Assembly (NCBI GenBank): GCA_002269645.1
Contig: NIVC01004075.1
Coordinates: 1-61,729, forward strand
Length of the DNA stretch: 61,729 bases
Origin: Macrostomum lignano
Lineage: Eukaryota
Direction of reading: 5' to 3'
In this document: one piece after another, positions 1,821-59,843 of the stretch
Position numbering within the stretch: position 1 is the first letter of the stretch
How the letters are laid out: each line of letters begins with the position of its first letter
Position numbers and translations under genes: made by a program
The notes under the pieces: model-generated
The model's input: the letters and a program-made list of their open reading frames with translations, nothing else
Told to the model about the DNA's origin: nothing
Database searches by the model: none

Positions 1821-3228
1821 ATTATGAGTTCCCACTCCTTTTCCAAGGAGAGAGCGTGCAAAAATGACGAAGTAGAAGAGAATGTGACGTTATTATACGC
1901 ATGGGTGCATTCTGATGCGAACAATGGGCGGGTTGCGCAAGGGATCAGGCGGGGGAGAGAGACGGGCAATCATGCGTGACTGTTTTATAATTTCAGGCAT
2001 CGACCACTTGAGTTCAGAATTTAAACTCGGAACCGTTAAATAGAAAATTGTATCTTTTGTAACCTAGAAAGCGAACAAATGATGAAGTGAATTAACATTT
2101 TGTGATGCACATGGCGAACAAGTCAAAACTGCAACTGCGATTTAAGTGTCAGACCACATGTGTGTGCTCAATCAGATGTTTTCACCGGCCAAGCAGCGGG
2201 CAGAAAGCAGTAAACTCTTGGCAACCGCGATGACATCCACTGTCTGGTAAACTCTCAAGCTCGATTTGCACGGCTGGCATGACTTGTCTGAATTTAACTG
2301 GCTCTGTGTCTTAAACTCAATGCTCTGTCTGCGCCTGGGCTACAGACAGACCATAGAAGGTGTTTTGACCATAGACAAAAGTAGAAGCATTGGTTGAATA
2401 TCATTGGCAGTGTCTTAAAATGAATACTTGAATTCTTAAATAAAATTAAATATTCTATAATGAGTATAGACGTGAGAGTGCATGGCTAACAGAGTTCGAG
2501 GGGAAGCTACACCTTTTTCCATTCTATTTTGGCAAACGTGCAATCAAAGTCGAAATCTTTTCATTCAATTCAGACAGTTTATGGTAGTTCTTGGCCGGAC
2601 GTGCATTCAATTCCGACAAATGTACTTTCAAAAGCGACAATTTTCAATCAAAGCAAACAAGCTACCACGAGAAACCGACACTTTGCAATCAATTCTGACA
2701 GTTGGCTATAAATTGGCTTTTTCTGTCCTCCTATCTATGGCTCATACTGCGAAATGTCCAATCAATTCCGACAAATTTCAATCTATTTAGACAAGCTACT
2801 TTTACTTTGGGTGGGGCCAGGGCTAAATGCCATAGACACATCATGGAGAGAAACTTGGAGATTCGGAACACCCATAGATTTAACCTTGCACCAAAGCAGC
2901 ATATCGGCGTGATATGCTTGAGTGAGTAACGAATAGTACTGTAAACGTCGTCACCGGAGCCAACTGCACGGCTTAGTACAACCATTGTCTGACTTATGTA
3001 CCGCGCTGCTTTGCGGAAGTGCCGATTGATGGCTAAAATCTGACTGCTGAATCTTTATGAACCTCATGAACTCTGCTGACTGCTTCAGTTTAGTTGTCCT
3101 GTTGCATTTTGAAGTATACTGTAAATGTACAGTACATGTAGTATGTACTCCAATGGCTTGTCTAAATAGATTGAAATTTGTCGGAATTGATTAAAAATTT
3201 CGCAGTATGCGCCATAGATAGGAGGACA

Positions 3229-5442
3229 TGATGTAACCGCCCTTGTCGCCTGTCCGCTCCGTAGAGAGACGAACGCATGGCTAGAGGGGGCAATGACCGT
3301 AGGCTGCCTATGACCGGGCAATGACCTGACGGACCTCCAGCACCAGACTGTCCCGCCCACATGATTAGTAGCTTTGGTAGCGCTTCGTGACCAGAGGGCC
3401 AAGGACCCACATGGACCCCACCTGTAGCCAAGGTGCAATAGTTGGTCACTCGGTCATAGTATGACCGAGTGGCTGCCACCACTCTATGTGACCTGGCGCA
3501 CCTGGATCTTTCTACCAGACCTCTCGAGGCTAGAGCCCCGCCTGGATTGGTTACCAGGGGATTTAGGCTAACAGGGGAGACGCATGCAGCCGAGTACAGG
3601 GACTCTGCTTGGGGCATGATCGGGAACTCTGGGCTCAATCCTGGAGGATTTCTCAGCAGGGGATCCTTTGTGGCTGTGAGCGAGGCTGACTTGCGACTTT
3701 GATTACTAAGAGTAGTATGAGGCGAACATGTACTGTCTACAGTTTAGATTGCTCAGGGCGAAGGGACGCGTTAGCATGGGGTTGCAACCTTCCTACTGCC
3801 ATTCTGTGCCAAGACTCGCTAATCCCTCTACTGCACGCACACGCGGCCCCGCAGCACGCACTCACAGGCGGGCTTTGCACGGGGAGAGGCCATTAGCTTA
3901 CCCAAACTTCCTTATGCTTTGCCACCCCGGGAGAAAGGCTTAGCAAGCCATGAGTGAAATGATGGTGAAAGATTGAATAATGATGAAGTTAGTTAATAGT
4001 TAATAATTAGGCCCTTAGGCAAATAAGCAGGCAATTAGGCGGCTTCACTATTGAGTAAAATACAGCAAAAGATACGGTATCACAATTGGCTCAGCTCTCT
4101 AATCAGACAATGGAAAATAGGCAAACCCCGGATAAGCAAAGGCAATTAGAGCACAAATTAGTAGCAGGAACTTACCGGCAGCTGCACAGAGAGAGAGAGA
4201 GGCGGAGTGACCGAGGGCGGCTGTAGGCTGCAGTCAGGCAGACGGTGAAGCGGCGATGCGCTGGAGCGACGAGGCGCTGATGTAGATCAGGCGATGCTGA
4301 TGATGCTGGGCGGTATCAGACCGCTGGCCGATAGGCGAGCTCACTTGGGGAGCTAAGGATAACTTGGCGGTAACAGACCGCGGCCGGCAGGGATTCGTCT
4401 TATAGACGAATGGGTCAGAACTCAATCTGACAGCAAGTCCAAAGAAGGACGAGGAGAGGAACAGAGATAAACTCAGTTGAGTATTCTCATGCCGAAATCG
4501 CTTCCTTTTATAGACCTCACAGCCGCCTCCTCAAGGTCGTTACCATGGCTCCCTCTCTCTGATTGGCTGCCGGCAGAATGACGTCAGAATGAGTCATGAT
4601 GAGAAGCATGAGACCGGCATAGCAACATGAGAAATCGGGAAATTGCGCAATCCGGAGGTGGGGTGGGGGATAATTGGCGCAGCGGGTGGTCGCGAAAGTG
4701 TTGCGCAAGCAAACATTGAGAACAATAGGGCTGGGGTCGAGAACAAAGGAATTGGAAATCGGGGATAATTGGGGAAAACTGAGAACAATGGAAAAGTAAA
4801 CATTGGAGAAAAGGTGATAATTAGGTGCGAAAACGAGAACAAAAGAAAGAGAAAATCGGAGAAAATGTGATAATTGGTGGGGGTCGAGAGAACAAAAGAA
4901 GCAAAAACGAGAACAATAGAAGCGGAGGTGGGGTGGGTGTCACATGAGAAATTTGGGAAGGAGAACAATAGCGTGAGAAAAGGTTGCGCAAGAGAGGGGG
5001 ATGAGTCATCGATGAGTCACCGAGGGGGAGAAGGGGTCACACGACTTGCGTCACCGTTTGGGAGTTTGAGAGGGGATGGGGAGACGGTGAGCACACAAAG
5101 TACTGTAAGTAGACACAGGGAAAGAGGGGACAGCGCAGGAAAAGAGTGCAGAGGGAGACAAAAAAAGGAGGAGGTAGAGAAAGTACAGGAAGAATAGGGC
5201 GGGAACAGAAGAGATAGGGTAGAGGGGGAGGTACAGAAAGGGGTAGGGGCTCCGGAAAGGCAGGTGTGGCGGCAGGAGAGACGGGACCAAGGCAGCAGGA
5301 GGGTGCAGCAGAGCGGGAGTCTCCAGGCCCGGTCGGAGACCTGGCCGAGTCTCGACAGCTCTGTGCAGAGGGTGCACGGGATAGGAGGCACTTTCGAAAA
5401 AGTTCCCATGCCCTATCCCGCGACCAGAGCGTGGTTACATCA
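3229..5442 (-). repeat. 3' LTR (2214 bp)
   Basis: Direct repeat of 14169-16384 with about 7 differences by eye (3 substitutions, 4 one-base indels). TG...CA ends with 10-bp inverted termini. Confidence 0.97.
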
Positions 5443-5459
5443 CACCCCCACTGCCTTTT
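5443..5459 (-). other. Polypurine tract (AAAAGGCAGTGGGGGTG) before the 3' LTR
   Basis: Purine-rich run directly abutting the start of the 3' LTR on the minus strand. Confidence 0.7.
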
Positions 5460-6501
5460 GTGACGGAACTGGTTCCGTCATCATCACTGCCCAACATGGA
5501 ACCACACAGACGGGAGCGGGATCTCAACCGAACGTGAAATCACAGAATTAACAAACCGCGAGCGGGAATGGAAAAAGGCGATAAAATAGAGGGGATAGCA
5601 ATAAATTCACAAAACGAGATACATAGGTTGGAGTGCAATACAGAATTTCAAAAATTTCAACTGTTGCTGTGGCTAAAGTGGGAGGGGGGAAACACAGACA
5701 GCGCAATAGTAGGGAGAAAAATAGCGAATTGTCAACAATAAATTATCATAATTGGATAGAAGCGCAGCTGGGAAAGAGAGGAAACGGGGAAGGGTGAGGG
5801 AAGTGGGGAAAAAGAAGGGGGAAGGGTTGCTAGCACACAGCCAAGGGCAGAGCCTCGGGGAGAATGACGATTACACAGGGGAAAAATACTAATGCAGCGC
5901 AGTAAATTAATAAGCTAATTTCGCCGGGAGTTCAACCGCACGGAGGCCTAGCGTCCTTGAAGGCTCGGACCCCGCTTCAGCCAGTCAGAGGGCTTCGGGG
6001 CGATCGGTTGTAGGCTGGGAGGCGCCGCGCCGTGCGCTGGCCACTGTATAAAAGGCGCCACTGATAACGGGAGCCGGCTGCCTGCAACCTACACGGAGTC
6101 GCAGTTTCCAACCAAGGCACTCAGCGCGATTTTCCAAACTATACAACTACTCGGTAAGTCCCATCACCAACCTGATTTCCTTTCGCCTATACGTTAAACG
6201 AAATCTACCCACTCGCCATGCCTTTCGTTTTAAACTGAGCCAATTGCAGTAATAATATATGGCCTTTCTTACGGTAAAAGTAGTGAGCAGCCAACACAGA
6301 GCCATTTTTAGGAATTTTTAGAATAATGACACAACAATGACTCGTATATTGGTTATTAAAGTTTAAAAATGAATATTATGGAAGAACCGAATATTAATAG
6401 GATAATTTCACACACACACACACGACAAACACACAACGCAAGGGGGCGGAAAGGCGGGTCGGACCGGCCGGCGGACGTCGCTCAGCAGGCAGTCAGCATC
6501 C

Positions 6502-7851
6502 TTACTCGAAATGGGCCTCTTGATTTAGCTGGTACGGGCCATATGCCGCCACCTGAGCCATGGCACTTGCCCATGCTTCCACATAACGTTGGGCTGCCGC
6601 GGCCGTGAGCACCACTCGGTGCCATCGGCTAGGCAAGATGTCGTTGCGCAGCACGCCCCTCAACTGCGGCAGAGTCGGGATGCCCAGGGCTTGGCATTGG
6701 ACGACGAAGGCCGCATTCCGTACTTGTTGCAGCCGTGTCAGAGTTGGTGCAGACAGGGGCGGCTGCGCGATTGCAAAATGCTGCAAAGTGCCACGGGGCA
6801 CCTCGGCCAGGCCCGCGTAGCCGGGCTCAACGTCGCCCAGGGCCGCCAACACCCACCCACAGCGGCGATTGAACCGTTGCGAGAGAGTGGCGGCCCAGGC
6901 CACTGTGGCAAACGGCGCATAGAGGAGGGGCGCAGAGGCCGGCGCGGAGGCCGCAAGAATGCCGTCGTGGATGACGAGAGCCTCTTCCCATTCGGCGCCC
7001 TCGCTCAGGAAGCCCCAGAGCAGCCCTGGCAGGTCCGCAGGAAGCATGCCCCAGCGGCTGGCCAAGCTGGCCAGGCCAATCAATAGCCGGGCTCTCTGGG
7101 TTGGTGTCAGTTGTCTAGTCATCTGAGAGGAGGCTGCGCAGCTGATGATCACCTTCTTGTAGACCGGCCGATCGCAGGTGCTGAAGATTGCTGTGATGGG
7201 GGCACAGGACGGCGGCCGGGCTGTCAGGTGTGATGGTTCCTCATCCACAACCTTGCGGAGGAACTTGGCGGCCTGCCGGACTAGGTCGCCGAGGGCGTAT
7301 TTGTAGGCGCTCTGGGCCGCTGCCTCGATGTACATTAACAGCGTATTGTCAACCAATCCCAGCAGGGCCGCTTTTGACAGGATGAGCAGACAGGGCCGGT
7401 CCAGGTTGTCGCGAAGTTGGCGCTCTAGAGTCGCATGCCTGTCCTCGGCCTGGAGTGGGCCATGATAGGACTCAGGCCCGACCCAGTGCACCAGATCCAT
7501 AGCTGTCGCCGAAGGTTCGCCAGCCACCTGACCCCAATCGACTTCTTCTCTTTGCAGGGCGATGTCCACACTTCGGCGGCTGTTGGGCAGAACATCACGC
7601 AGGCGGCGGGCCGCCTCGCCGAATTCGGCCGCCAGGTCCGAAATGTCCGCGGTGTCGCCCCCAGCATTGGCCGGGTCGATTGTCTCGTCACCTTCTTCGA
7701 CCCTGGCGGAGGCCGCCGCTGGCGGCTCGGGGCCGTCCTCCGCCTCTTGGATGGCGTCACGGGGCCGCTTTCGGCTAACTGGGCTGGCAGGACGCTCAGA
7801 CGGTAAGCTGGAGCATAGCTGAATTCGATTGATGGTAGGCTTCGTGTCCAT
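6502..7851 (-). CDS. 449-aa accessory ORF of unknown function inside the LTR element (env position, not env-like)
   Basis: Long GC-rich ATG-initiated ORF with a basic RKRPR motif, an acidic N-terminus and a Leu/Ala-rich remainder. Same strand as gag. No recognisable RT/IN/env motifs. Confidence 0.75.
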   Translation of the reverse strand: MDTKPTINRIQLCSSLPSERPASPVSRKRPRDAIQEAEDGPEPPAAASARVEEGDETIDPANAGGDTADISDLAAEFGEAARRLRDVLPNSRRSVDIALQREEVDWGQVAGEPSATAMDLVHWVGPESYHGPLQAEDRHATLERQLRDNLDRPCLLILSKAALLGLVDNTLLMYIEAAAQSAYKYALGDLVRQAAKFLRKVVDEEPSHLTARPPSCAPITAIFSTCDRPVYKKVIISCAASSQMTRQLTPTQRARLLIGLASLASRWGMLPADLPGLLWGFLSEGAEWEEALVIHDGILAASAPASAPLLYAPFATVAWAATLSQRFNRRCGWVLAALGDVEPGYAGLAEVPRGTLQHFAIAQPPLSAPTLTRLQQVRNAAFVVQCQALGIPTLPQLRGVLRNDILPSRWHRVVLTAAAAQRYVEAWASAMAQVAAYGPYQLNQEAHFE

Positions 7852-7942
7852 GTCAAGCTGGATAGTTCATAGAATGCTTCAGCGATTGAAGGACAGAATG
7901 ATTTCTCTGATTGATGATTTCCAGCTCTGGCAGGCGTGGGTC

Positions 7943-8080
7943 TTCTTATAGTGCCGGGGCTGGCTTCCCATTGGTTGAGCACATTGGGAGGCACACCTGC
8001 TGCGGCCGGGGTCGCCGTTGGCTTGGGACCGCTCGCTCTAGTCTCCGTGCGCTCTGATTGGCTGGTTCCGCCGCTTCCTG
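7943..8080 (-). promoter_or_regulatory. Putative internal promoter for the 449-aa ORF
   Basis: Minus strand: CAGGAAG (8074-8080), CCAAT (8057-8061) within CTCTGATTGGCTG identical to the LTR CCAAT context, TATAAGAA (7943-7950), then ATG at 7851. Confidence 0.45.
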
Positions 8081-8394
8081 TTTCCTCACCTGTGAGCAGG
8101 GGGCAGACCCGAGACCACCTCCGGTCGCGCCCGCGGCAGATCCGTACTCCAGCCGACAGAGATCGCACTCCCACCTCACATGCACACATTCAGATCAGGC
8201 ACACAAATTAATTTGGTTAATATGAATAGAAGAGGGATTTGGGAGATTAGACTCCGGAGGATAAATGATGATGCGGCCCAACTCCCTTCGATTTCTTCCT
8301 TCAACGCCACGCGCACGCAGTTCTCATCCATGCCTCCGAGACCCTCATAAACTTAACAGCCGAAAGAATTCGAAAGAGGAATTAATCATTAATT

Positions 8395-8765
8395 TGACTG
8401 CCACCAGTTTGATGTACTATTATAAAAGAGAAAGGGGAACCTACCACCATCTTGGCGCATTACCAAAGAAAAGAAAAGGAGGATCAGCCACCATTTTGAG
8501 AGAGGTTGCTAGGGAAAACTGCCACCAATTGTACATTAACAGGGAAGAGAAAGAGGGAACCCGTCACCAATTAGAGTGGATTGCCCGGGGAAACTGCCAC
8601 TATTTGCCCTTCTACCAGAGGAGAGGAAGACGAAAAACTGCCATCCTTAGAGGTGTATCATTAAAAGAAGGCGGGGAAGAAGGCTACCACTACTTGATCA
8701 CCTAGAGCTCAAGGGAAGGAGAGGGAATGAAGAAAGGAAGAAACCCCCAGGAAGGCCACTACCAC
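8395..8765 (-). repeat. Array of ~9 degenerate TGGTGGCAG-type motifs separated by pyrimidine-rich spacers
   Basis: On the plus strand RCCACCA-type motifs near 8400, 8444, 8487, 8521, 8563, 8596, 8640, 8685 and 8760, mostly 32-48 bp apart. Confidence 0.6.
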
Positions 8766-8855
8766 ACGCCATAAAGTTAAAATCCCCATCTATCTACATC
8801 CTAATACCCGGCTAGTTCCCTACTTCTATTTCATCCCTTAAATTCTCATTTTCAG

Positions 8856-9262
8856 GATTCCGGCCGCTAGTAGCCGAGCCCATCCTTGAAGAGGAGTCCG
8901 ACTACGAAGCGCCCGAAGACAGCCATTCAGAGCCGGACGCCCCCTCTGATTCTGGGCCGGCTGCGCCATCTGGTGACATAGGCGCCGCGGCTCCCGGGCC
9001 ATGCGACCGCCGGGCCGCCAGCGAACCAGCGTCCGGGGCCGGTTGGCATCCGGTACCACCGCCGTTGTCAGCCCGAGCGCACGCTCCGCCGCCGGTCGCC
9101 GCGGTGACGCCCGTGGCTGCCGCTCCACAGCCCTTGCCAACCCCTGTGGTGGAGACCGACGGCTCCTGGCATTTGGTCGTGCTGTCGACGGCCCTAATAG
9201 CCGGTCTCACAATGCACTGGCTACTGCTCTTGGAGCTATTTCTGCGGCTTCCCAACTGCTGA
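8856..9262 (+). CDS. Antisense coding exon inside the LTR element: acidic/Pro-rich segment with a C-terminal hydrophobic anchor (~135 aa)
   Basis: Acceptor ...aattctcattttcag at 8855, then an open frame FRPLVAEPILEEESDYE...WHLVVLSTALIAGLTMHWLLLLELFLRLPNC* (extends ORF 9065-9262 upstream). No start codon identified. Confidence 0.5.
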
Positions 9263-9849
9263 TGCTGGTGGTTCTTAATGCTTACTTACTAATTCTGAAC
9301 TATCTGTCCCCATAACTTGACTTTAATTACTTACCTGACTTTACATTGACTAAACCACTGGCCTACTCTAAACTAATTGCTGCCCCATTTGCCTGATAAA
9401 CTTAATTACATTGAAGGCCCCCCCCTATTGCCTCATCGAAACCAATTAAAAGTTTCCCAAAATCGGACTTTCACAAAGTGTGAACAAACACACGAAATCA
9501 GACCTAAAGGTGCTAATTTCCTACGGTCCCAGACTTCCATTGTTCCCAGAAAATCTTAAACAGCGGGGCAGGACCTCCTGTGGAGCAGACCCATAGAAAT
9601 TTTACTAGTTTCCAAGTTAATATTTACTGATAGGGAATTAACGCATACTGTACGGGCCTAATTTTCGAGCTAAAATCTTAGATATTTAAACAACACCAAC
9701 GAGCACGAGGTCACAACATAAATTCGAGTAATAGAGGGCATACGTAAATACGCGAAAAGCGGTCTCCAACGGGGCAACACGAGCAAAATTTCGACACGCG
9801 AATCGGGGGGGGGAATTAAGCAATCACTGGCTAGCTACCGATCTGTTAC

Positions 9850-10374
9850 TCAGCGGGGGTCGAATGGGAGACTCACACCTAGCAAGTAAACCTTTTCTGT
9901 TCGATAGTCTATGATAGCATGCGTACTGGCTAGAAAAGCACTACCCAGGAGGGAAACTGCTGCTGAATTGCCAACGACCAGAAAGAGGATTCTCACCTCT
10001 TCTAGCCCAATAACTGCTGTGAGGGTGGCCTGGCCTAGCATCTCTAATTCATTGCCCGTGTAGGACACGGCCTTCACACATGGGGGCTCCAGGGCCTCCA
10101 CACTCTGTCCGGTAATTTTAGTAAAGTCTTTGACTGTTAGCAAAGACAGCGCACTGCCCCCATCTACCAGGAGGCGGGTGGGAACATTCTCAATTGGCAA
10201 CTCTACAACAATATCTCTCCCGCGTTGTCCTCTAGCTGGTCTTGGCTGATAGAAATCGGGTACCTTCTCAAATCTAAACTTCTTGCTGGGCGGACGTGGC
10301 AGGTTAAGCTGGGCCCTAGAGAGGGAACGGGGCTGAGTTCGGGCCGGGCCATTCAGCCCTCCCACGGGTTTCCC
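9850..10374 (-). CDS. Retropepsin-type aspartic protease, reached from gag by -1 frameshift
   Basis: LLVDGGSALSLL catalytic motif and C-terminal SLLGSAFL...IIDY. Overlaps the gag 3' end in the -1 frame at GGGAAAC (10368-10374). Stops at 9850 with no downstream RT. Confidence 0.88.
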   Translation of the reverse strand, partial: GKPVGGLNGPARTQPRSLSRAQLNLPRPPSKKFRFEKVPDFYQPRPARGQRGRDIVVELPIENVPTRLLVDGGSALSLLTVKDFTKITGQSVEALEPPCVKAVSYTGNELEMLGQATLTAVIGLEEVRILFLVVGNSAAVSLLGSAFLASTHAIIDYRTEKVYLLGVSLPFDPR

Positions 10375-11798
10375 GAACCCGGGGGCTCTTCAGGCGTGGA
10401 AGGAGGAGGCATCAGAGCTTGCGCGCGCAGCTGGGCGAGCCTCTCCTGCCTCTCCCTGGTAGCCTCGTCTAACATATCTCTGCCCCACTCCTCTAAATCT
10501 TGCCTATGGCGATCAGGTGGCGCACGAAGCTGCAATTGCTGCTGCTGCACACCCGGCGCCGGCGGCGTGGGCGCCTCCTGAATTGCAAGCGGCGGGGGCT
10601 GGGGTTGGCGCCAGTTCCTACTGCTATTAGAGCCGCCCTGCCCCTGCCTCCAGTTCCTGTTGGGAGTGGCGGGGCGAGGGGGCCTCATCTGCTGGGGCAG
10701 CTGGGCAACAGACTCTGCTGTCGCCTTCATAGTTTCATTGAGCTGCACCAGCTGGTTGCGCAGATCCTTTTGCGTTTGCTCTAGCGCGCCCAACCTCTCT
10801 TGCATCTCTGATAGGCCGTCACCGTCCTCCTCCGTCTCGTCAGCTTCCTGGTTCACCATCCTGACCCACTTGCGAGGGGGCCTGGGTGGCTGCTGAGGTT
10901 GCAGACGGACTTCGGTGCGGGACTCAGACCTGGGCGGGCCACTACTGTCCCATTTCCCGGCTAAGTCTGCGGCTTCTAACAGGGCTTGCTGCTGTTCTAA
11001 CACCTGCTCAATTGTCTGCCAGCGACGGCTCAACAGATCTTGTCTGACCTGGCGGGGGAGCTTAGCGTGTTCCAAGTAGGTGTACACGATTTCTTGTTCT
11101 CTCTGCTCACCCTGAATCTGAGGAAACATGGCCGTTATCTGAGATCTTATCATAGCAGCAAAAGCACTATGTGATTGGCCGGGTTTCTGGCTCAGATTCT
11201 TCAGCTTATTTCTCTTAGCCAGATCAGTGTTGGCCTCGCCCAACTGCTCTCCTAATCTAGATACGAACTGCTCAAAGGGCAATTGCCCGTCCAATCCTAA
11301 GGCTAAGTTCTGAAATTCACCTGGGAGGTGCGAGATGAGCACCTGCTTCCTAGCCTGATCTCCTACAGTTCTCTCCGCGTCCAGCTTGTAGATCATTCTC
11401 TCTACCCATTGCACAAAACAGTGTTCGCCGGGAGAGAACTTTTCTACGTAGATTTTCGGCCTCTGGGCGTCTTGGCCCATGTTTAGCTGGTTAAACGCAT
11501 TGGCTATAGCGGCAACTAAGTCTCCTAGCTGCGGGACTGCCTGAGGAGGATTCTGGGCTGCGTCCGGGGGAGCAGCGGCGGCTGCTGCGCCACCCTGATT
11601 GGGAGCGGGAGCTGCTACTCCTTCATCTGGTTCCTCAACTACTACTGCTTCTGGAGGCTGAGGGACCTGGTTACCAGCGGCTGCGGCCATTGCGGCTGCG
11701 GGGGCGGCAACTGCTGGGGTGTCAGCGGCCGAGGGTGGTTGACCAGGGGCGTCTGCGCACACAGCTTCTACGACCCTATCTCCACGCGCCCGTGACAT
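10353..11798 (-). CDS. gag: Gag (Ty3/Gypsy capsid-like), 481 aa, no CCHC knuckle
   Basis: Ala/Pro-rich N-terminus; capsid-like core with LKNLSQKPGQSHSAFAAMIRSQITAMFP; coiled coil; Arg/Gln-rich C-terminus. Lies downstream of the PBS. Confidence 0.88.
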   Translation of the reverse strand: MSRARGDRVVEAVCADAPGQPPSAADTPAVAAPAAAMAAAAGNQVPQPPEAVVVEEPDEGVAAPAPNQGGAAAAAAPPDAAQNPPQAVPQLGDLVAAIANAFNQLNMGQDAQRPKIYVEKFSPGEHCFVQWVERMIYKLDAERTVGDQARKQVLISHLPGEFQNLALGLDGQLPFEQFVSRLGEQLGEANTDLAKRNKLKNLSQKPGQSHSAFAAMIRSQITAMFPQIQGEQREQEIVYTYLEHAKLPRQVRQDLLSRRWQTIEQVLEQQQALLEAADLAGKWDSSGPPRSESRTEVRLQPQQPPRPPRKWVRMVNQEADETEEDGDGLSEMQERLGALEQTQKDLRNQLVQLNETMKATAESVAQLPQQMRPPRPATPNRNWRQGQGGSNSSRNWRQPQPPPLAIQEAPTPPAPGVQQQQLQLRAPPDRHRQDLEEWGRDMLDEATRERQERLAQLRAQALMPPPSTPEEPPGSGNPWEG

Positions 11799-14147
11799 GT
11801 GAATGCCGGATAGCTGGGGGAGTACCCACTACCGGGAAGGAAAAGAAAAGAAAACCGGGGCAACTACAGGTAAAGACCGAAAAGTTGATCCGAAACACAC
11901 AAACACACTCACACACACAAACACAGACAAAACTCACACACTTGCGGCGTCGAAGAAAACAAATTGAAAAACGGGTGGCTCCACATAATTCCATTTAGGC
12001 AGTCCTAACGGCTTCACTCGGCAAAGCACACTGACTCAAACTGCGGCTACCACTACCAGTTGTCTATGGCACATCCTGACAGGGAAAAATTGGCTATTCA
12101 GAGAGACTTGACCTTCATTTTGCGGCCATGCTAGGGAACCCAAATGCCGACCGTAAACGGACTTACGGCACCTGTACAAATTCTCCCCTAGGGTTGCGCG
12201 CCGGACCCCATTTCCTTAAGAAAGCTACTACGAAGAAGCGTTGGCGCCTGGACCCAAAAACCCAAGTGGCGGGAGCAATCCCCATGGAGGTCCTCCCACT
12301 TTACTGCCCTTGCACAGCCGGAAAACCGTCGGAGTCCAGTGGGGCTTCCACCTCAGGACTACCAATCTTGTACACGCAGCTTCACAAAAGGCGGGAATCC
12401 AGCTCCCCTACGTCTAGCAGAATCCACAAAAACCAAGACCTCCCCCTTCTGTTCAGAGCGAAGGCGCGCAGCGGGAGTCCAGACTAAACTGTCCCCGAAG
12501 TTTTCAGGTTAGGCGGATTACAAGCCTGAAACTCTCGCCCGCTTTCCTAGGATAAACAGACCTAAGTGAGTATCTTCCTGAAATGCTTGCCCCTCCGATA
12601 CTCCACCTTTGCTGCAGCTCGAAATAGCATACTTGGGACCTTTATCTGATGGCGGAGAAAGTCCTACAGTTGTCAGCCTCTCCACTTTACTGTACTTGAA
12701 CGCCCGGTTCTACCAGGAGACAGCGGTACCTCCATCTAGGTTATTCCAAGTTGCCAGAGACGTCAACCCGTCTTATTGACCTTGCGGGGCACTGGGGTGG
12801 CACTCTATGTACCGGGGCTTTACATTAGGGGACTGCATGCAACCCTGCGTCTAAGCGCTTAGTGGGCTGCAGTGGCCAGAGGGGAAAAGAGTTGCGCAAT
12901 AGCGCCTTCCTGGGCCAGGCTGACAAGTCGGGCAGGAGCGCCGTTCTACCGGGTCGGGCTGATTGGCACACCCACCTCCCCTATCAGACTGACAGCAGGG
13001 GGGAGGAATTACTAAAGGAGGAGAATGCAGCAGGAAACATTACGAGATCACTGGGGGCCACCAGACTTCCAGTACACCATTCCAATACTCACTGAACTCC
13101 ACTATCAATAGGATACTATGGGATCTACTATTTCCAGCCACTGCACCAGCCCAAATGCAACCAAAGCAGTTACTACCGGGTCTGCAATACAGTGGGGAGA
13201 GTCAGCAGACACGTTGGGATCGAATCCCAGCCATGAAGGCACCAGGGGTTACCGCAGAATTCAGGTCCGGGCTGATCGCAGGTATTCCATAGGAGGTGAC
13301 ACTTTTTTTAGCCCGAGATTTTTGAGTCACACTGATACCCTACAGAGATACAATCACACCGCTATTCCCATTCCTGCGAGACTTTGGTATCCCCCAATGT
13401 TTCCAAGGCCATGACTACTGCTTCCCTTACTATGCATATATAGCGAGTTCCCCATAGCCCTTGATAGCTGTTCATTCTAATGGACAAACAAAACACGCTC
13501 CGGTCTCTACGCATTTCTAGGATTAACTGAGCGATCAGGGAGAGCGACTGTTACACTCCCCGAGTAAAAGAAAGAGGTAGGACAAAGGAAAGAAATGCTT
13601 CGCTTCCAGCTTCCCTGTGCTTGCGTGATGAGGCTTCCGTACCTGGCTGGCTGTCCACCTCAACACTCACACAGTTCTGCTGTAGGCTAGGCGAGAGAAA
13701 GAAAGGGAGGGGAAATAAAGCATATTACCATGAAATAGAAAGTGAGTCCGGAAAATTCACTTTCGCAGTTCTTCACACACTCCGTTACCAGGTAGCTATT
13801 CTGATTGTAATCAAATCCGCTCGTCTACCACTTCACACTTTCTAGCGCTGAAACTGATCGGCTAAATTAATTTTAAATTGAATCAGGGGCTTTTGGCGAA
13901 TGAATGAATTTGGAAATTTCGAATGAATTGAACGAATTCGCAGCCCGAAAAATTTGAAAAGTTACATTAATATTTTTGGATTTTGTTGCCTCACGCCATG
14001 GGAGAAGAGAATGACGATTGGCGATTTTTACGATTGGTAGATTTAGACATGGCACTCTTTGCGCTTCGGCCACCATTCTGAGGGATGCCACAGGTGCGCT
14101 TGTCACATCTAAACCACCAGTCCGAAACTCAGCGCTGTTTGCACCAG

Positions 14148-14165
14148 ATCCCACCGCTGCCACCA
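14148..14165 (-). other. Primer binding site, tRNA-Leu type
   Basis: TGGTGGCAGCGGTGGGAT, 3 nt from the 5' LTR end. Complementary to the 3' 18 nt (ATCCCACCGCTGCCACCA) of the tRNA-Leu(AAG/TAG) sequence as I recall it. Confidence 0.9.
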
Positions 14166-14168
14166 TTT

Positions 14169-16384
14169 TGATGTAACCGCCCTTGTCGCCTGTCCGCTCC
14201 GTAGAGAGACGAACGCATGGCTAGAGGGGGCAATGACCGTAGGCTGCCTATGACCGGGCAATGACCTGACGGACCTCCAGCACCAGACTGTCCCGCCCAC
14301 ATGATTAGTAGCTTTGGTAGCGCTTCGTGACCAGAGGGCCAAGGACCCACATGGACCCCACCTGTAGCCAAGGTGCAATAGTTGGTCACTCGGTCATAGT
14401 ATGACCGAGTGGCTGCCACCACTCTATGTGACCTGGCGCACCTGGATCTTTCTACCAGACCTCTCGAGGCTAGAGCCCCGCCTGGATTGGTTACCAGGGG
14501 ATTTAGGCTAACAGGGGAGACGCATGCAGCCGAGTACAGGGACTCTGCTTGGGGCATGATCGGGAACTCTGGGCTCAATCCTGGAGGATTTCTCAGCAGG
14601 GGATCCTTTGTGGCTGTGAGCGAGGCTGACTTGCGACTTTGATTACTAAGAGTAGTATGAGGCGAACATGTACTGTCTACAGTTTAGATTGCTCAGGGCG
14701 AAGGGACGCGTTAGCATGGGGTTGCAACCTTCCTACTGCCATTCTGTGCCAAGACTCGCTAATCCCTCTACTGCACGCACACGCGGCCCCGCAGCACGCA
14801 CTCACAGGCGGGCTTTGCACGGGGAGAGGCCATTAGCTTACCCAAACTTCCTTATGCTTTGCCACCCCGGGAGAAAGGCTTAGCAAGCCATGAGTGAAAT
14901 GATGGTGAAAGATTGAATAATGATGAAGTTAGTTAATAGTTAATAATTAGGCCCTTAGGCAAATAAGTAGGCAATTAGGCGGCTTCACTATTGAGTAAAA
15001 TACAGCAAAAGATACGGTATCACAATTGGCTCAGCTCTCTAATCAGACAATGGAAAATAGGCAAACCCCGGATAAGCAAAGGCAATTAGAGCACAAATTA
15101 GTAGCAGGAACTTACCGGCAGCTGCACAGAGAGAGAGAGAGGCGGAGTGACCGAGGGCGGCTGTAGGCTGCAGTCAGGCAGACGGTGAAGCGGCGATGCG
15201 CTGGAGCGACGAGGCGCTGATGTAGATCAGGCGATGCTGATGATGCGGGCGGTATCAGACCGCTGGCCGATAGGCGAGCTCACTTGGGGAGCTAAGGATA
15301 ACTTGGCGGTAACAGACCGCGGGCCGGCAGGGATTCGTCTTATAGACGAATGGGTCAGAACTCAATCTGACAGCAAGTCCAAAGAAGGACGAGGAGAGGA
15401 ACAGAGATAAACTCAGTTGAGTATTCTCATGCCGAAATCGCTTCCTTTTATAGACCTCACAGCCGCCTCCTCAAGGTCGTTACCATGGCTCCCTCTCTCT
15501 GATTGGCTGCCGGCAGAATGACGTCAGAATGAGTCATGATGAGAAGCATGAGACCGGCATAGCAACATGAGAAATCGGGAAATTGCGCAATCCGGAGGTG
15601 GGGTGGGGGGATAATTGGCGCAGCGGGTGGTCGCGAAAGTGTTGCGCAAGCACACATTGAGAACAATAGGGCTGGGGTCGAGAACAAAGGAATTGGAAAT
15701 CGGGGATAATTGGGGAAAACTGAGAACAATGGAAAAGTAAACATTGGAGAAAAGGTGATAATTAGGTGCGAAAACGAGAACAAAAGAAAGAGAAAATCGG
15801 AGAAAATGTGATAATTGGTGGGGGTCGAGAGAACAAAAGAAGCAAAAACGAGAACAATAGAAGCGGAGGTGGGGTGGGTGTCACATGAGAAATTTGGGAA
15901 GGAGAACAATAGCGTGAGAAAAGGTTGCGCAAGAGAGGGGGATGAGTCATCGATGAGTCACCGAGGGGGAGAAGGGGTCACACGACTTGCGTCACCGTTT
16001 GGGAGTTTGAGAGGGGATGGGGAGACGGTGAGCACACAAAGTACTGTAAGTAGACACAGGAAAAGAGGGGACAGCGCAGGAAAAGAGTGCAGAGGGAGAC
16101 AAAAAAAGGAGGAGGTAGAGAAAGTACAGGAAGAATAGGGCGGGAACAGAAGAGATAGGGTAGAGGGGGAGGTACAGAAAGGGGTAGGGGCTCCGGAAAG
16201 GCAGGTGTGGCGGCAGGAGAGACGGGACCAAGGCAGCAGGAGAGGTGCAGCAGAGCGGGAGTCTCCAGGCCCGGTCGGAGACCTGGCCGAGTCTCGACAG
16301 CTCTGTGCAGAGGGTGCACGGGATAGGAGGCACTTTCGAAAAAGTTCCCATGCCCTATCCCGCGACCAGAGCGTGGTTACATCA
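14169..16384 (-). repeat. 5' LTR (2216 bp)
   Basis: Direct repeat of 3229-5442, adjacent to the PBS. Confidence 0.97.
15445..15536 (-). promoter_or_regulatory. LTR core promoter (TATA, CCAAT, CRE, AP-1); same motifs at 4505-4596
   Basis: TATAAAAG 15445-15452, CCAAT 15502-15506, TGACGTCA 15519-15526 and TGAGTCA 15530-15536, in canonical order and spacing. Confidence 0.7.
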
Positions 16385-17680
16385 GACAGAAAAAGCCAAT
16401 TCATAGCCAACTGTCAGAATTGATTGCAAATTGTTTGAATTGATTGCAAAGTGTCGCTTTTGAAAGTACATTTGTCGGAATTGAATGCACGTCCGGCCAA
16501 GAACTACCATAAACTGTCTGAATTGAATGAAAAGATTTTGACTTTGATTGCACGTTTGCCAAAATAGCTCGTAGAATGGAAAAAGGTGTAGAAAGGACTA
16601 AAGTTACTAAAGGACTAAAGGGGCTAAAGAACAGATAAAAAAAAATAGAGTTTATCTAAAGAGTAGACATACGCGGTAATTATAAGTACAGAGTGAGGCG
16701 CGTGAACGGATATGGCGTACATATTGAGGCGGGGCGCTGGTAAAAGGGAAGTCGATACATTGAATTTGTAATTCCAGTAAAGTTGATGACATCAATATGC
16801 ATAGTAACAGAGGCAAAAGGGGACGGGGGCAAGCCAAGAGACAGGCGCCGCAGGGAAGAGAAGGGAGCGAGAGAGAGAAAGTACAATAGTGCGCAGTGAC
16901 AGGCAATAGCATTGGAGATGAAGGGATTTACATGGAGGGATTCAGATGAAGGGGTGTGATGCTGCATCTACCGTAGAGTACGGATACATCAGCAGAAGAA
17001 GATCTGTGAGGATGGAAGGTGCTGTTAGCAAGAGATGGCGGGCAGCCGGGGAGAAGTGGCACTCACCCAGGGCCATATCCCTCGTCTCCTAAACCAGAGC
17101 CCAAGACAATTGGGAGCAATTAAAAATGAAAAATTGATGAGGCTCTCGGGCGCCTAAACCGTGCAGGATACAAAATGCACTACACTAATACTAAAAGGTT
17201 TTTGTAGATTAGCAACTAAATTAGAAAAAGCTCTGCTTGTGTTTCTTAACTAAGACGGATTTGTCTCAGCTGAGTTTAGCCAGTATCATATAATATTTAG
17301 CTGAGCACACAAGCGCTAATACTGTACGCAGGCCCGCACTCACACACACGCTCACACCGGGTGTACAGAGGCCCTGACTTTCTAATCGTCAGGCGTGTAC
17401 AGTCTATGTGCCCCGGGAGTGGCCCTCATAATTTGTGAATTGCACAACGAACTAGGGGTCATGGCGCAAGAGTCAGACGCGCCCTGCCCTGCCTCATGCC
17501 AATCTGATATTACTTTTTGTAGATGAGGTACGCGAATGGTCCCTGATCGGCTGGGGGCTATGAGATCTCACCTCACTCTCCCAGAAGTCTCATGCCTATA
17601 CTCTCAATGTACTTTTACCGAATCTCACCAAATTAGACTGTTACTTTTAATGTACTTCTCAATCATTTGATATGCCTAGT

Positions 17681-18967: not shown

Positions 18968-19993
18968 ATACATATTTAACATGTACAATACAGAAGAGTT
19001 CAAAGAGAATTTAATGTTTGCGAATGAGATATTTCATCTCAGCCCATCACAGAGTATTCTGTCTAAGTCTGTTTGCTCCGCTTGAGTTGTAAGTGTCACT
19101 TGTGCCTGTAAGCTGACGTGACGTGAATCAATAATTACAGAACCAGTAAGTCAGAGCTATGAAAAGTTATGTCTAGCGATATTTGCATTGGGATAAAAAA
19201 ATAGGATAGAATCCCGAATCCATTTATTTTACTTCACACATTTTCGTTATCACTTCAAAGTGAATTTGACAGTTTGTAAAATTGTAAAATATAGGCGTGC
19301 ATCTCTTTGATATTATATACACACAACTCATGTTGCAGTCTACAGATGAGTTATTTAAGAATTTCTAGGATAGCAACAGTGGAATTATGGATTATAACCA
19401 TCTATTCTTCGGGATTAAAGTCTATTTTACCCAGAAATTTTACAGTCCAAAGACAGCCAGTGAACTAAGCAGTATCGGTATGATGCAACAGCTAATTCTG
19501 TATCGTAGCGTAGAGAGCCCATATATTCAATTGATTGAATCAGTCAACATGCAGTTCGGTGTTGCGTAATTGGAGTGGCCAAGTCGAGTGTCAGAGCGAT
19601 ATTTGCAAGCACTAAAGACGTACGAGTCTTACATGCGGAATGCTGGCAGTTTATAGCGCGCACAAGAACAAGCGAATGTGTAAGACTTCCGGAGTCCATA
19701 TTCGATCTCAAATAACAATCAAAGCCTCTTCACGAGCGATTATATCACATGACTGATGTACAAAGCAACGAAAATAATACACAAATCGTGCGATTCCTCA
19801 AAAATTACATGCATTTGACGGCGGTGTGAATCAAAGCATCAAATCCAAAGTCTTTTTCCCCTGGCAGATGCAGTTATTGTAAGTGCGACGCCGCCAAAAA
19901 CTATCTGATTTAAAGCCTTAAGACAAAGCTTTGGGACTCTGAAGAACAAGCGGTCAAGAAATCTATCGAATGCCAAAACGGCGATATCAATGT

Positions 19994-20758
19994 CTAGTCA
20001 AAGGGCGACACGCACTCGCACACGACGCCCCTGTCCGTGTTCTGTCGCACGTCGTGAAGCCGGCCCGTAGCCGACCCTCTGGCGAGGGCTTCTTCGTTAC
20101 CGCCGTTGTTGTCGGGCTCATGGCCGTACCACAGACTCTCATTCACGGTGATGCCGCAGGTGCTCCACACCCAGCCTCCTCGCGGCTCCGCACTGCCTGC
20201 TGGCTGGTAGCCGTCCAGGAACAGATTGAGGTTCAGACTGTACTTGGTGTACAGCTGGTTGATGTAGCCCATCTCGGCTAAGTCCACCGCATCCGCCATC
20301 ATTGCCAGGCCGCCACCGAACTCGCACCGTTGCTTCTGAGCTGCCCAGTAACCCAACTCAGAGTACAGTCTGTACTTCACTCCGCACCGGTCGTCGCCGA
20401 AGTCAGCCGGACACAGCGAGCCGGGCGGGAGACCCGACTGCAGCTTGACGAGCAGGCGACCTCTGAGGGAGCAGCTGCTGCAGTTCCTCACCGACTTGCT
20501 GCACCTGTCGAACACGAACAGCTGGCAGGGTCCGGCAGCGGTGGTGAAGGCCTGGCAGCTGGGCTCCTGGCTGCACAGGAAAGCGCAGGGCTGCTCGGAG
20601 CTCACCTCGGGGATGGTGCGAGTGAACTCAGGCCGGATGCACAGGGAGCCGTTGATTGGAGAGTAGCGGCTGCGGCACGTCTGTGCGCTGCAGTGACGGA
20701 CAGTCGGCAGTGACAGCAGCGAGATGTACAGCGGCAGAAGGTGCAGCAGCTGCGGCAT
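19994..20758 (-). CDS. Secreted PAN/apple + C-type lectin domain protein, 254 aa, intronless
   Basis: Hydrophobic signal peptide. PAN-like Cys pattern (CAFLCSQEPSCQAF...CQLF). CTLD features: C..FGGGLAM, WVWS, WYGHEPDN, terminal VVCE. Confidence 0.85.
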   Translation of the reverse strand: MPQLLHLLPLYISLLSLPTVRHCSAQTCRSRYSPINGSLCIRPEFTRTIPEVSSEQPCAFLCSQEPSCQAFTTAAGPCQLFVFDRCSKSVRNCSSCSLRGRLLVKLQSGLPPGSLCPADFGDDRCGVKYRLYSELGYWAAQKQRCEFGGGLAMMADAVDLAEMGYINQLYTKYSLNLNLFLDGYQPAGSAEPRGGWVWSTCGITVNESLWYGHEPDNNGGNEEALARGSATGRLHDVRQNTDRGVVCECVSPFD

Positions 20759-56690: not shown

Positions 56691-59600
56691 TCAGTCCTCA
56701 GCGTCAACAAGTTGCCCTTCATCGTCACTACTGGCGTCCTGATCAGCACGCTGAGCAGACTGGGTCCGTTGCAGACACGCTCGCTTCAACTTGTTGACAT
56801 GCACGACGCGCCCCTTGATCTCCCCGTCCGTGTAATTGATCGGCCGCACCAAGTAGTTGACAGGTGATGTCTTGCGCATGACTTTAAATGGGCCTGTCCA
56901 CGGTGATTGATGCTTCGGAGGCAGACAGTTGGTCCTGGACAGCACAGCAGGCGGAACGAACAGCCACACTAGATCGCCGGTGCGAAACTTGCGCTTCTGG
57001 GCTTTCAGATCGTAGTACCGCTTCTGCCGTCGTTGAGCCGCGCCAGTTGACCTCCGCACAGCGTCAAAGGCGTCCTGCAGTCGTTGAATGGTCTCTACTG
57101 CGTACTGGCCGACGACGGATGGAGGCTCTGGGGACCGATAGACAACGTCCAATGGCAGAACCACCTCCCGGCCCGTCATCAGGAAATGTGGGGAAAATCC
57201 GGTCGTCGCGCTGATGCTGCTTCGATAGGCTAGGAGACAGTACGGCAGGGCGTCCTCCCAGTCCAGCGGATCGACAGTTTGAAGGTGGCAGCGCAACATC
57301 TGATGGAGTGTCCGATGAAATCTCTCCACGAGGCCGTCACATTGAGGATGATAGCCCGACGTTCGAGTCTTGTCGACCTCCAATAGTGTACAGAGACTGC
57401 GAATGATGCGGCCATCGATGCTCTTGCCGCGGTCGGAGTGGAGAATATGCGGAGCACCCCACCTGGAGATCCAGTTGTTGAAGAGGGCCTTGGCAATTGT
57501 CGTCGCCTTCTCGTCCGGAATCGGCACCAGCTCCGTCCACTTGCTGAAGTAGTCGACGATGCTCAGGATCCGATCGTTGCCGTTTCTGGAAGCGCCGACC
57601 TTGACAATGTCGAACCCGACACGCTGCATTGGAAACCCTGCAGTGATGGACTGTAGCGGCGCCCGCTTGATAACCGGAGTCTTTGCCCGCTGGCAAACCT
57701 GGCATGACCGAACGGCCAACCGGACGCTCTCCGACATTTTTGGCCAGTAGCAACGCGTCTTTAGGCTGGCCAGCGTCTTGACTTCGCCCAGGTGGCCGAC
57801 GTTGTGAATCTCGTCGACAAATTCGCGTTGTCGGCAGCGGGGAATGACGGGTACTGGCTTTGTGTTGACCAGCCTGTGCAGTGTACCGTTCACGAAACAC
57901 AAGTCATGCACCTTCTGCGCCAGCACCAGGCTCTCCGGCGGTACTCGGTCGCGTTGTCGGTCGGTAAACCTAGTCTTGCCGTCGGCCAGCAGTCGGAACA
58001 CCGGACTGATAACCGGATCCTGCAGCTGAAGCATACGTAGCGTCGGTGGCCTGTTGTCTGCCGCTGGCGCTGCGGATTCATCTTCGTTGGTGTCGTCCTC
58101 GCTGCTGCTGCTTTCTTCGCTGTCGTCCGACCGGGGCTGATGGATTTGCTTGCGCCTTGATGGCACGGTGCCGACGCAGACATGCACATTGTCGGTCTGA
58201 ACAGCTTCGTCGGTAGCCGTCGACACTAGCTTGATGGTCGCTGCGTTGATCTGGGCGGCAGCGGCGGCATCACTGTTGGCGTCGGTCTGGCAGGCAACCG
58301 AGGATGTCGTCCTGCTGGTGGTCTCATTTGTTGGTCGACACACCCGACACTGGTTGGTACAGCGCTGCTGCTGACGGGACAGCGCATCGGCGTTGTTGTG
58401 TTGACGGCCCGGCCGATAGAGTACTCTGAAGTCGAACTCGTCTAGCGTCTGCAGCCACCGCGCGAGTTGACCTTCGGGCTCCTTGAATGTCAGCAGGTGC
58501 GTTAGAGACTGATGATCGACCCGCACGGTGAACTTCCGAGGCAGCAGGTAATTCCGGAACTTCCTGACATGCTCAACGACGGACAGCAGCTCCCGCCTCG
58601 TTACACAGTAGTTGCGCTCGGCTTTTGTTAGTGCTCTGCTGGAGTACGCGATGACTCGTTCTTCGCCCGCCTGCAGTTGAGAGAGTACCGCACCAATGGC
58701 GCAGTCGCTGGCGTCAGTGTCCAGAATGAACTCCGAGCTGGTCGCACTAGTATCCGGGAAGGCGAGGATTGGAGCAGAGGTCAGTGTTGCCTTCAGTTGG
58801 TCGAATGCTTCTTGGGCCTTGGACGTCCACTGAAACCTTTCTGTCGGAACCGTCAGGCGTCGTAGCGGCTCGGCGATCTTTGAATAATCCCGAATGAACC
58901 GTCTATAGTAGGCTGCGAGACCTAGGAAGCTCTTGACCTCCTTGGAAGTTCGGGGTGTAGGCCAGTCTCGGATCGCAGCAGTCTTTGACTCGTCGACGGT
59001 GATACCCGACTTGGAAACTCGATGGCCCAAGACGATCATCGTGGTGTTGGCGAAATGGCATTTAGATGGCTTCAAGCGTAGGTTCGCGTCCCGCAGCCGC
59101 TCGAACACCGCCCGCAGCCGATAGTTGTGCTCCTCGATAGTCCGGCCCATGACAATAACGTCGTCGATGAAGACCAGGCACGCTTGCCAGGTCAGGCCTT
59201 GGAGCACCAGCTGCATGAGGCGTTGAAAGGTTGCCGGGGCATTGCGCAGACCAAACGGCATGACGTTGAACTCGAAGAGGCCTTGATGGCAGATGAAAGC
59301 AGTTTTCTCTTTGTCGCGCTCCTCGACCTCAACCTGCCAGTAGCCACTCTCCAGATCGAGTGCCGAGAAGTAGGCGTTGCCTTGCAGCGCATCGAGTGTG
59401 TCGTCGATCCTCGAAATTGGAAAAGCGTCCGGCTTGGTGACCTCATTGAGCAGTCGATAGTCTAAGCAAAAGCGCGCTGTCCCGTCCTTCTTACGAACAA
59501 GCACGATTGGCGAAGCCCAAGGCGATGAAGACGGCCGGATTACTCCTTTGGTCAGCATGTCGTCGATCAATTCGGCCTGCTTGTCGATGACTGGACGCGC

Positions 59601-59696
59601 TGCACGCCGCAAACCCTGCCGGATCGGCCTTGCCCGCGCCGGTGTCGATGCGATGCTGCAGGACTGCAGTTCGACCAGCATTGCCAGGGGATGCAA
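56691..59696 (-). CDS. pol: Pol: RT, RNase H, integrase (HHCC, DDE, GPY/F)
   Basis: SPWASPIVLV, RFCLDYR, MPFGL.NAPATFQRLM, VFIDD, ILDTDAS, RELL, DHQSL, ADALSR; H..GHLG...C..CQ, VGFD, HSDRG, GLVERFHRTL, WTGPFKV. The true N-terminus joins the upstream frame at ~59630. Confidence 0.95.
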   Translation of the reverse strand: MHPLAMLVELQSCSIASTPARARPIRQGLRRAARPVIDKQAELIDDMLTKGVIRPSSSPWASPIVLVRKKDGTARFCLDYRLLNEVTKPDAFPISRIDDTLDALQGNAYFSALDLESGYWQVEVEERDKEKTAFICHQGLFEFNVMPFGLRNAPATFQRLMQLVLQGLTWQACLVFIDDVIVMGRTIEEHNYRLRAVFERLRDANLRLKPSKCHFANTTMIVLGHRVSKSGITVDESKTAAIRDWPTPRTSKEVKSFLGLAAYYRRFIRDYSKIAEPLRRLTVPTERFQWTSKAQEAFDQLKATLTSAPILAFPDTSATSSEFILDTDASDCAIGAVLSQLQAGEERVIAYSSRALTKAERNYCVTRRELLSVVEHVRKFRNYLLPRKFTVRVDHQSLTHLLTFKEPEGQLARWLQTLDEFDFRVLYRPGRQHNNADALSRQQQRCTNQCRVCRPTNETTSRTTSSVACQTDANSDAAAAAQINAATIKLVSTATDEAVQTDNVHVCVGTVPSRRKQIHQPRSDDSEESSSSEDDTNEDESAAPAADNRPPTLRMLQLQDPVISPVFRLLADGKTRFTDRQRDRVPPESLVLAQKVHDLCFVNGTLHRLVNTKPVPVIPRCRQREFVDEIHNVGHLGEVKTLASLKTRCYWPKMSESVRLAVRSCQVCQRAKTPVIKRAPLQSITAGFPMQRVGFDIVKVGASRNGNDRILSIVDYFSKWTELVPIPDEKATTIAKALFNNWISRWGAPHILHSDRGKSIDGRIIRSLCTLLEVDKTRTSGYHPQCDGLVERFHRTLHQMLRCHLQTVDPLDWEDALPYCLLAYRSSISATTGFSPHFLMTGREVVLPLDVVYRSPEPPSVVGQYAVETIQRLQDAFDAVRRSTGAAQRRQKRYYDLKAQKRKFRTGDLVWLFVPPAVLSRTNCLPPKHQSPWTGPFKVMRKTSPVNYLVRPINYTDGEIKGRVVHVNKLKRACLQRTQSAQRADQDASSDDEGQLVDAED

Positions 59697-59843
59697 AAAC
59701 GGTGCTGAACTCTAACAGCAAATCCTTGACCGACTGTTGCTCTTCGACGGAGATAGAGCTTTCGATGTGCACGTCGTTCAGCCAGTTGGTGCGAGGTAAG
59801 TCCGTCGCTAAAGCTGTTGTTGATGTAGCCGTGCTGACCGCGA

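Follow-up and report, generated by a model that had tools for sequence, protein, structure and literature searches.

The window, a 61,729-nucleotide stretch of the Macrostomum lignano genome (GCA_002269645.1, contig NIVC01004075.1, positions 1 to 61,729), carries on its reverse strand a whole Ty3/Gypsy-type LTR retrotransposon that lacks pol (3229..16384; 13,156 bp; 4-bp target-site duplication GACA), which we call A1, of the A type. Its two 2.2-kb LTRs, the 5' LTR at 14169..16384 and the 3' LTR at 3229..5442 (both on the minus strand), are 99.6% identical; the 5' LTR has the ends TGATG...CATCA, a CCAAT box at 15506 and a TATA at 15452. Between them, all on the minus strand, lie a primer-binding site complementary to the 3' end of tRNA-Leu (14148..14165), the 5' UTR with the start of gag (11589..14168), a gag of 481 aa (10353..11798; dN/dS 0.10 against the copy on contig C100), an aspartic protease frame with the motif LVDGGSA (9850..10389) that overlaps the end of gag and has a weak Pfam aspartyl-protease match (E 0.02), the gene studied here, ORF449, and a 3' UTR with its polypurine tract at 5455-5443 (5443..6276). 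A GGGAAAC at 10374-10368, within the gag/protease overlap, is presumably a -1 frameshift site, judging by the type of motif. The element thus shows the Ty3/Gypsy hallmarks of LTRs, a tRNA-Leu primer-binding site, a polypurine tract and a 4-bp target-site duplication (window, C100 and C936). No RT, RNase H or integrase was found within 3229-16384, and only gag and the protease frame precede ORF449. A1 sits in one arm of an inverted-repeat, MITE-like sequence (window 2507-2796, 3156-3228 and 16385-16591), and it lies between the two copies of an inverted gene duplication (1-1198 and 19456-20667, 95% identical), whose product has, by eye, a C-type-lectin-like C-terminus.

ORF449 (6502..7851, minus strand) encodes 449 aa with an acidic N-terminus followed by a predicted helical bundle and alpha/beta domain. 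The first-pass annotation of this region, made from sequence alone, described an intact orphan frame in the element's sense, and this is confirmed, as are an NLS-like RKRPR (residues 27-31), the acidic N-terminus (13 D/E and one K/R in residues 33-78) and the absence of a signal peptide (best 12-residue hydropathy within residues 1-30, 0.3). It was also right that the product does not look like an envelope or fusion protein: there is no signal-like N-terminus, C-terminal anchor or transmembrane segment, the model is a helical bundle plus an alpha/beta domain, and the best 19-residue hydropathy window, a borderline 1.7 at residue 154, is modelled as a helix of the bundle. Two descriptions hold in part. 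ORF449 occupies the env position in that it follows gag and protease, but no pol stands before it; and the supposed helical body applies to about residues 150-285 but not to residues 288-436, which are predicted to be alpha/beta. The RKRP is kept in the three alleles of this family (family 1) and is absent from the homologue in a second family and from the protein P0004, both described below. As for a known pol or env domain, there was no match to ORF449 in Pfam, PDB sequences, NCBIfam or PHROGs, nor in word-index protein searches, viral contigs or metagenome contigs.

The annotation had further proposed that ORF449 has its own promoter-like region, and the motifs it listed are present: CAGGAAG starts at 8080, CCAAT at 8061, and TATAAGAA lies at 7950-7943, 92-99 nt upstream of the ATG. 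The 13-mer CAGCCAATCAGAG is common to the ORF449 upstream region and the LTR promoter; such sharing was found in 0 of about 300 random internal 300-mers, though part of the match is generic NF-Y consensus. The putative internal promoter (7943..8065, minus strand) consists of CCAAT at 8061, CCAAT at 7974 and TATAAG at 7950. Both CCAAT boxes and TATAAG persist in three alleles of about 75% identity, which makes a promoter of its own plausible, but CAGGAAG does not. Upstream identity among these alleles is 65-72% at -360 to -120 compared to 20% in the last 40 nt. The spacing is not kept in family 2, where TATAA lies 32 nt and CCAAT 439-462 nt upstream of the ATG. The alternative splice acceptor TATCCAG does exist at 7864-7858, 6 nt before the ATG, but it is not conserved in the three alleles and no such joint occurs in the RNA-run contigs.

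These contigs come from four presumed-RNA runs of four studies and span the whole A1 element, although they are uninformative as to strand, start site or level. A single GT-AG joint was found in them; it is antisense, runs from 7802 to 8856 and occurs in two of the four runs. It defines an intron of an antisense transcript (7803..8855, plus strand), whose donor is kept in three alleles, and a following exon (8856..9262, plus strand) with a constrained Pro/Ala-rich frame that has a C-terminal hydrophobic stretch and differs from C100 by 23 synonymous and 15 non-synonymous codon changes. In the 3' UTR, an antisense TATA (6047) and a GTAAGT donor (6154) can be read from the sequence (6047..6159, plus strand) and recur in the partner element described below. 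The joint and the constrained downstream exon together indicate that a second, antisense gene likely overlaps ORF449, so that RNA over the frame cannot be credited to ORF449. Neither this transcript nor the partner element figured in the annotation.

A search of the genome (764 Mb, 5269 contigs) gave at least 79 matches to ORF449 on 37 contigs, among them 15 full-length copies without stops at 99-100% identity, a further allele without stops on C100 (77%) and pieces with frameshifts. Compared with the C100 allele, dN is 0.142 and dS 1.33, giving a dN/dS of 0.107 (bootstrap 0.075-0.147) that is far from neutral, and the differences fall 79/44/227 on the three codon positions. Such strong purifying selection bears out the earlier idea of an accessory protein. 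Constraint is uneven, with a dN/dS of 0.32 in residues 1-95 and 0.043 in residues 271-449, and comparison with the pieces of a pseudogene on C201 gives 0.10. Among 27 near-identical loci, two of which are repeats, there are 15 synonymous, 11 non-synonymous and one stop variant; many copies have 1-6 indel columns, which may be decay or assembly error. The other five frames across ORF449 hold 9-15 stops, and ORF449 is thus the constrained frame. DNA identity to C100 is only about 75% for the cassette but 92-99% for LTR, UTR and gag, indicating that old alleles are carried in a homogenised backbone. Judged by its sequence, ORF449 is a real, strongly conserved accessory gene that is neither env-like nor a piece of pol.

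Could ORF449 instead be a recently captured host gene, as the annotation had also suggested, or a neutral passenger? The C201 copy (72% identical) has no other element parts within the 40 kb examined, and the cassette has been lost repeatedly, both of which would fit. However, stops and frameshifts mark the C201 copy as a pseudogene, and no intact relative outside these elements was found among 79, 35, 19 and 14 genome matches, searches which intron-split or very distant paralogues could escape; the related genome sequences all lie in these elements, are fragments of them, or are that lone pseudogene. Against a passenger stand both the dN/dS of 0.11 and a homologue at the equivalent position in a sister family (family 2, carried by the A2 elements), which has 388 aa, 22% identity and an hhalign probability of 95.7% (E 1e-8). 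Together these make the captured-gene or passenger explanation very improbable. Outside the genome, only the Logan proteins P0001/P0004 (437 aa, 31% identity over the full length) and P0003 were found; a further candidate, P0002, was set aside as a repeat protein that matches residues 74-114.

We fetched 20 regions that were positive for gag and negative for ORF449. In 16 of them the cassette is deleted and its flanks are joined, by four junction types, one of which, between two TG tracts, accounts for 12 of the 16; two of the remaining regions end at contig ends and two are cut by other sequence. Cassette-less copies have multiplied, from which we infer that any needed ORF449 product must work in trans, and ORF449 likely does so. 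Two such copies stand in tandem with one LTR in common (L051-L052, C4958:5501-22100). A protein that is dispensable in cis, with a putative promoter of its own and an NLS-like RKRP kept in three alleles, could be a suppressor of host silencing, by piRNA or chromatin, acting for the same two-part element that we propose below; the occurrence of two alleles only 75% identical in a 95-99% identical backbone could likewise reflect conflict with the host. Yet purifying selection is strong, and strongest in the C-terminal domain (0.043); the N-terminus (0.32) aside, nothing suggests that the amino-acid sequence changes rapidly; family 2 and P0004 lack the NLS; and none of the known domains of chromatin or RNA silencing was matched. 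We therefore consider a silencing suppressor unlikely.

Of the structure predictions for ORF449, an earlier fold from 3 sequences was unusable (pLDDT 34); the model of residues 96-449 from 14 rows has a pLDDT of 53 and a pTM of 0.56, and all structural matches rest on this one model. The predicted layout is an acidic, low-confidence N-terminus (residues 1 to about 150), a helical bundle (about 150-285) and an alpha/beta, SGNH-like domain (about 288-436). In Foldseek searches of the PDB, SGNH hydrolases fill 6 of the 10 best rows at E 0.09-0.28, with no fold match at E<=0.001, and the viral fold rows of highest probability are mostly hydrolases of the SGNH kind. VIA aligns model residues 193-341 onto whole SGNH domains with Z 5-6.8 (OatA, Z 6.8 over 134 residues, rmsd 4.4; TesA, Z 6.0), but non-SGNH rivals score as high or higher, namely receiver domains (Z 7.6) and ATP-citrate lyase (Z 7.5). 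The helical half has only generic bundle matches, and the ESM Atlas gave only leads below 0.9, to PD-(D/E)XK clusters. A global hhalign comparison to 63 SGNH domains covers 141 columns and is weak (probability 1-3%, P 0.015-0.018; 3 of 60 block shuffles as high). In this profile alignment GWVLAALGDV falls on block III, H411 on the catalytic His and VIHDG on the second strand; the structural alignments disagree on the place of VIHDG. Reading the TesA range without gaps puts Gly297 of VIHDG at Ser10, the nucleophile of TesA.

The catalytic residues themselves are mostly missing. H411 is present in all aligned sequences that extend that far, but the GDS motif is absent from every family member, the block III Asn position is V341 (Val or Ala in the family), D-x-x-H occurs in family 2 only, and the model has no nucleophile serine in structural register. 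A search with an SGNH HMM recovers none of the ORF449 family (best E 0.27), comparison with the host SGNH enzyme alone yields no match, and none of the bacterial and host SGNH domains compared is significantly similar to ORF449 in sequence. On the strength of the model, the balance tips slightly towards a C-terminal domain derived from an SGNH/GDSL hydrolase, with Gly297 at the nucleophile position, and catalytic activity appears unlikely.

An active or membrane-directed protein of this kind has precedents. Passages of PMC5408684 describe a GDSL ORF3 in the bdelloid Vesta LTR elements and catalytically dead GDSL derivatives in Athena-L, and according to parts of PMC3905857 the ZfL2-1 ORF1p esterase binds lipids and membranes, not oligo-A RNA. 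ORF449 resembles the ORFs described there in being an extra frame in the env position without a transmembrane segment and with a predicted SGNH-like alpha/beta domain; the Vesta GDSLs, as presented in that source, keep S-G-N-H, whereas ORF449 keeps only the His and adds a helical bundle and an acidic N-terminus. ORF449 might then be a membrane-targeting SGNH-type protein, possibly a hydrolase using Ser265 and His411, like the ZfL2-1 ORF1 esterase or the Vesta ORF3. Besides the known env-position GDSL ORF3s (PMC5408684, in part) and the binding of liposomes by the ZfL2-1 esterase even with active-site mutations (PMC3905857, in part), this explanation can point to S265, which is nearly invariant and near which the global profile alignment would place block I, and to the conserved H411. 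S265, however, lies inside a predicted helix (250-266) and not after a strand, and the missing GDS motif, the Val or Ala at the block III Asn position and the lack of a transmembrane segment or signal peptide all speak against it, leaving this a possibility of low probability.

Other env-position frames in this genome differ from ORF449. Those of five canonical families (C390, C1310, C590, C514 and C100:607101) have no similarity to ORF449 or SGNH. Four canonical elements carry one such family (L113, C390:164519-165640; L114, C1310:24584-25453; L115, C590:51430-52182; L123, C100:607101-608228), whose members begin with a long Pro-rich stretch and have in common a helical C-terminus with an RLD motif; this family is unrelated to ORF449 by profile. 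In another canonical Gypsy family a 521-aa ORF lies downstream of pol (L112, G000:C514:223395-224957). By eye, its N-terminus resembles a DnaJ J-domain.

Gag searches revealed where the missing enzymes may come from, a second element type, B1, present in 9 copies. It shares with A1 the LTR (99% to the A1 5' LTR), the 5' region to 11589 (96-99%) and the 3' UTR to 6276, so that LTR and UTR identity in this pair is 96-99% overall, whereas the capsid part of A1 Gag is only about 27% identical to the partner Gag. The coding region of B1 is one ORF of 1543 aa, Gag-spacer-RT-RNaseH-integrase, and the RT-RNaseH-integrase order of a Gypsy pol is found in the B partner only. B1 has no D[STGC]G motif upstream of RT and no protease match. 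A protease profile from 7 canonical elements matches A1 and two A2 elements (E 9e-6, 7e-9) and finds nothing in 9 of 9 B1 and 2 of 2 copies of a related type, B2 (best E 8.9), some B copies being covered only partly by the stretch scanned. The alignment of canonical elements to B resumes downstream of the canonical protease, and only about 35 low-complexity residues separate Gag from the pre-RT spacer in B. Thus neither A nor B by itself carries the full gag, protease, RT, RNase H and integrase set of an autonomous Ty3/Gypsy element. Their complementary domain sets and shared ends suggest that A and B likely depend on each other to move.

The same division is found in a second pair. A2 (C4636, C847 and others) has a gag 36% and a protease 40% identical to those of A1, the latter with a canonical DSG, and B2 (C3095, C1757) has a protease-less pol that is 54% identical to that of B1. 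LTR and UTRs of B2 and A2 are about 97% identical, and B2 retains the last 39 codons of the A2 ORF. In a midpoint-rooted Gag tree of few rows, the Gags of A and B fall together in a single clade apart from five canonical Gags (100/100), and B1 groups with B2 (100/98); B1 and B2 are sisters by Gag and also by RT, in an RT tree of six rows, all from the M. lignano genome, with four canonical RTs left out. Recurrence of the protease/RT split in a second, deeply diverged pair points to a likely old two-component lineage of LTR retrotransposons. The present halves are both young, the LTR pairs of A and B being 99.5-99.8% identical. Two further loci hold truncated alleles of the family-2 ORF, at 80% identity, together with 3' UTR and LTR (L142, C1319:184058-184777; L150, C2038:133278-133982); on C1319 a canonical gag-pol element occupies the place of the element's rest, probably a nested insertion.

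The numbers of the two types, about 57 A-type gag loci against 9 B1 copies, would also be expected if A were an ordinary non-autonomous parasite, B being processed by the protease of another Gypsy family or of the host, the pair not obligate and ORF449 serving A only. Canonical protease-bearing families are present in the genome, and the A1 protease reads DGG in place of D[ST]G. Several findings count against a mere parasite. The division is seen in both pairs, their B pols being sisters and their A gags and A proteases homologous; the protease of A2 has the canonical DSG; the copy on C100 keeps the A1 protease frame open; and co-packaging is suggested by the Gag N-terminus and UTRs that the two types have in common. 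We regard a parasitic A type as distinctly unlikely. The B polyprotein could still be cut by another family's protease.

The reading we prefer, tentatively and from sequence and model together, is that the gag-protease element with ORF449 and the protease-less RT-integrase partner form one obligate two-part retrotransposon, in which ORF449 would be a non-catalytic helper in trans with an SGNH-esterase-like domain. The A type would make the bulk of Gag and, via the -1 frameshift, Gag-protease, and the B type a single Gag-RT-RNaseH-integrase polyprotein to be cut in trans within mixed particles. Both RNAs would use the same tRNA-Leu primer site and LTR ends, and template switching between co-packaged A and B RNAs would keep the shared regions alike. 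We infer trans-cleavage and co-packaging because the domain sets are complementary and the cis regions shared, and this part of the scheme, taken as a whole, is very probable. Within the two-part element, ORF449 may bind the elements' RNA or RNP, a role favoured because the protein is soluble, trans-acting and, in family 1, NLS-bearing. Oskar OSK is said, going by the titles of references, to bind RNA. OSK (PMC7250577) is called a non-catalytic SGNH domain in PMC3905857, and ORF449 would resemble it in a predicted SGNH-like fold without catalytic residues; PF17182 (OSK) gave no candidates in the M. lignano genome. According to PMC10309623, CERV of the C. elegans element Cer1 exports genomic RNA and is made from spliced element mRNA. 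Like CERV, ORF449 belongs to an animal LTR retrotransposon and is an accessory protein distinct from Gag and Pol, and the likeness that we propose is one of role, not homology, CERV differing also in its spliced mRNA. By analogy with these two, ORF449 might serve the nuclear exit of unspliced genomic RNA or its gathering for packaging, but this is a guess that we would not lean on. Anti-silencing and membrane targeting are close rivals to the RNA or RNP role.

At the level of the lineage, we think it probable that these elements represent an old, obligately two-segment animal LTR lineage, with a capsid/protease/accessory segment and an RT/integrase segment that diverged together at least once, the two genomes setting the Gag-to-Pol ratio. 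The accessory genes of the A segment would then be an SGNH-derived pseudo-enzyme and an antisense membrane protein. Angel/Halo is reportedly a comparable grass pair, for which no literature match was found, and PARTC as a complementing pair was not borne out. The closest precedents are mutualistic pararetrovirus pairs and wheat Cereba/Quinta. PMC5491270 describes ePVCVL and ePVCVL2 of grasses as mutualistic non-autonomous pararetroviruses. As with A and B, each is an incomplete reverse-transcribing genome, their domain sets complement one another, and their non-coding regions are nearly identical, a likeness that recombination maintains. As described there they are plant viruses with a protease in both partners, whereas A and B are integrating animal LTR retrotransposons that both keep Gag, are split between protease and RT-RNaseH-integrase, and have accessory genes in one half. 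For the wheat pair, parts of PMC11302176 present RLG_Cereba as fully autonomous with its own protease beside RLG_Quinta; the B-type RT partner has none, so dependence would be mutual, unlike that of Cereba and Quinta.

Extra env-position ORFs and Gag-donating non-autonomous partners are already known. Apparently new is a mutual split in which one LTR element holds the protease and its partner RT-integrase, and which two diverged pairs show alike; no such split was found in the literature searched, which left most subscription journals outside it. If true, it would offer a natural model for the origin and persistence of segmented genomes among reverse-transcribing elements. ORF449 itself is a new retroelement protein family under strong constraint, and possibly another esterase fold reused without catalysis. 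Annotation seeded on RT would pass over the A type and list the B type as one more ordinary family; a survey of M. lignano (PMC12801592) is RT-seeded, and the main text, in the portion available, is without the words "protease", "non-autonomous" and "ORF". The window holds a separate Gypsy element of its own (56691-61231, minus strand) with RT, RNase H and integrase, whose RT is 46% identical to that of B1 and whose coding region contains a 24-nt tandem repeat.
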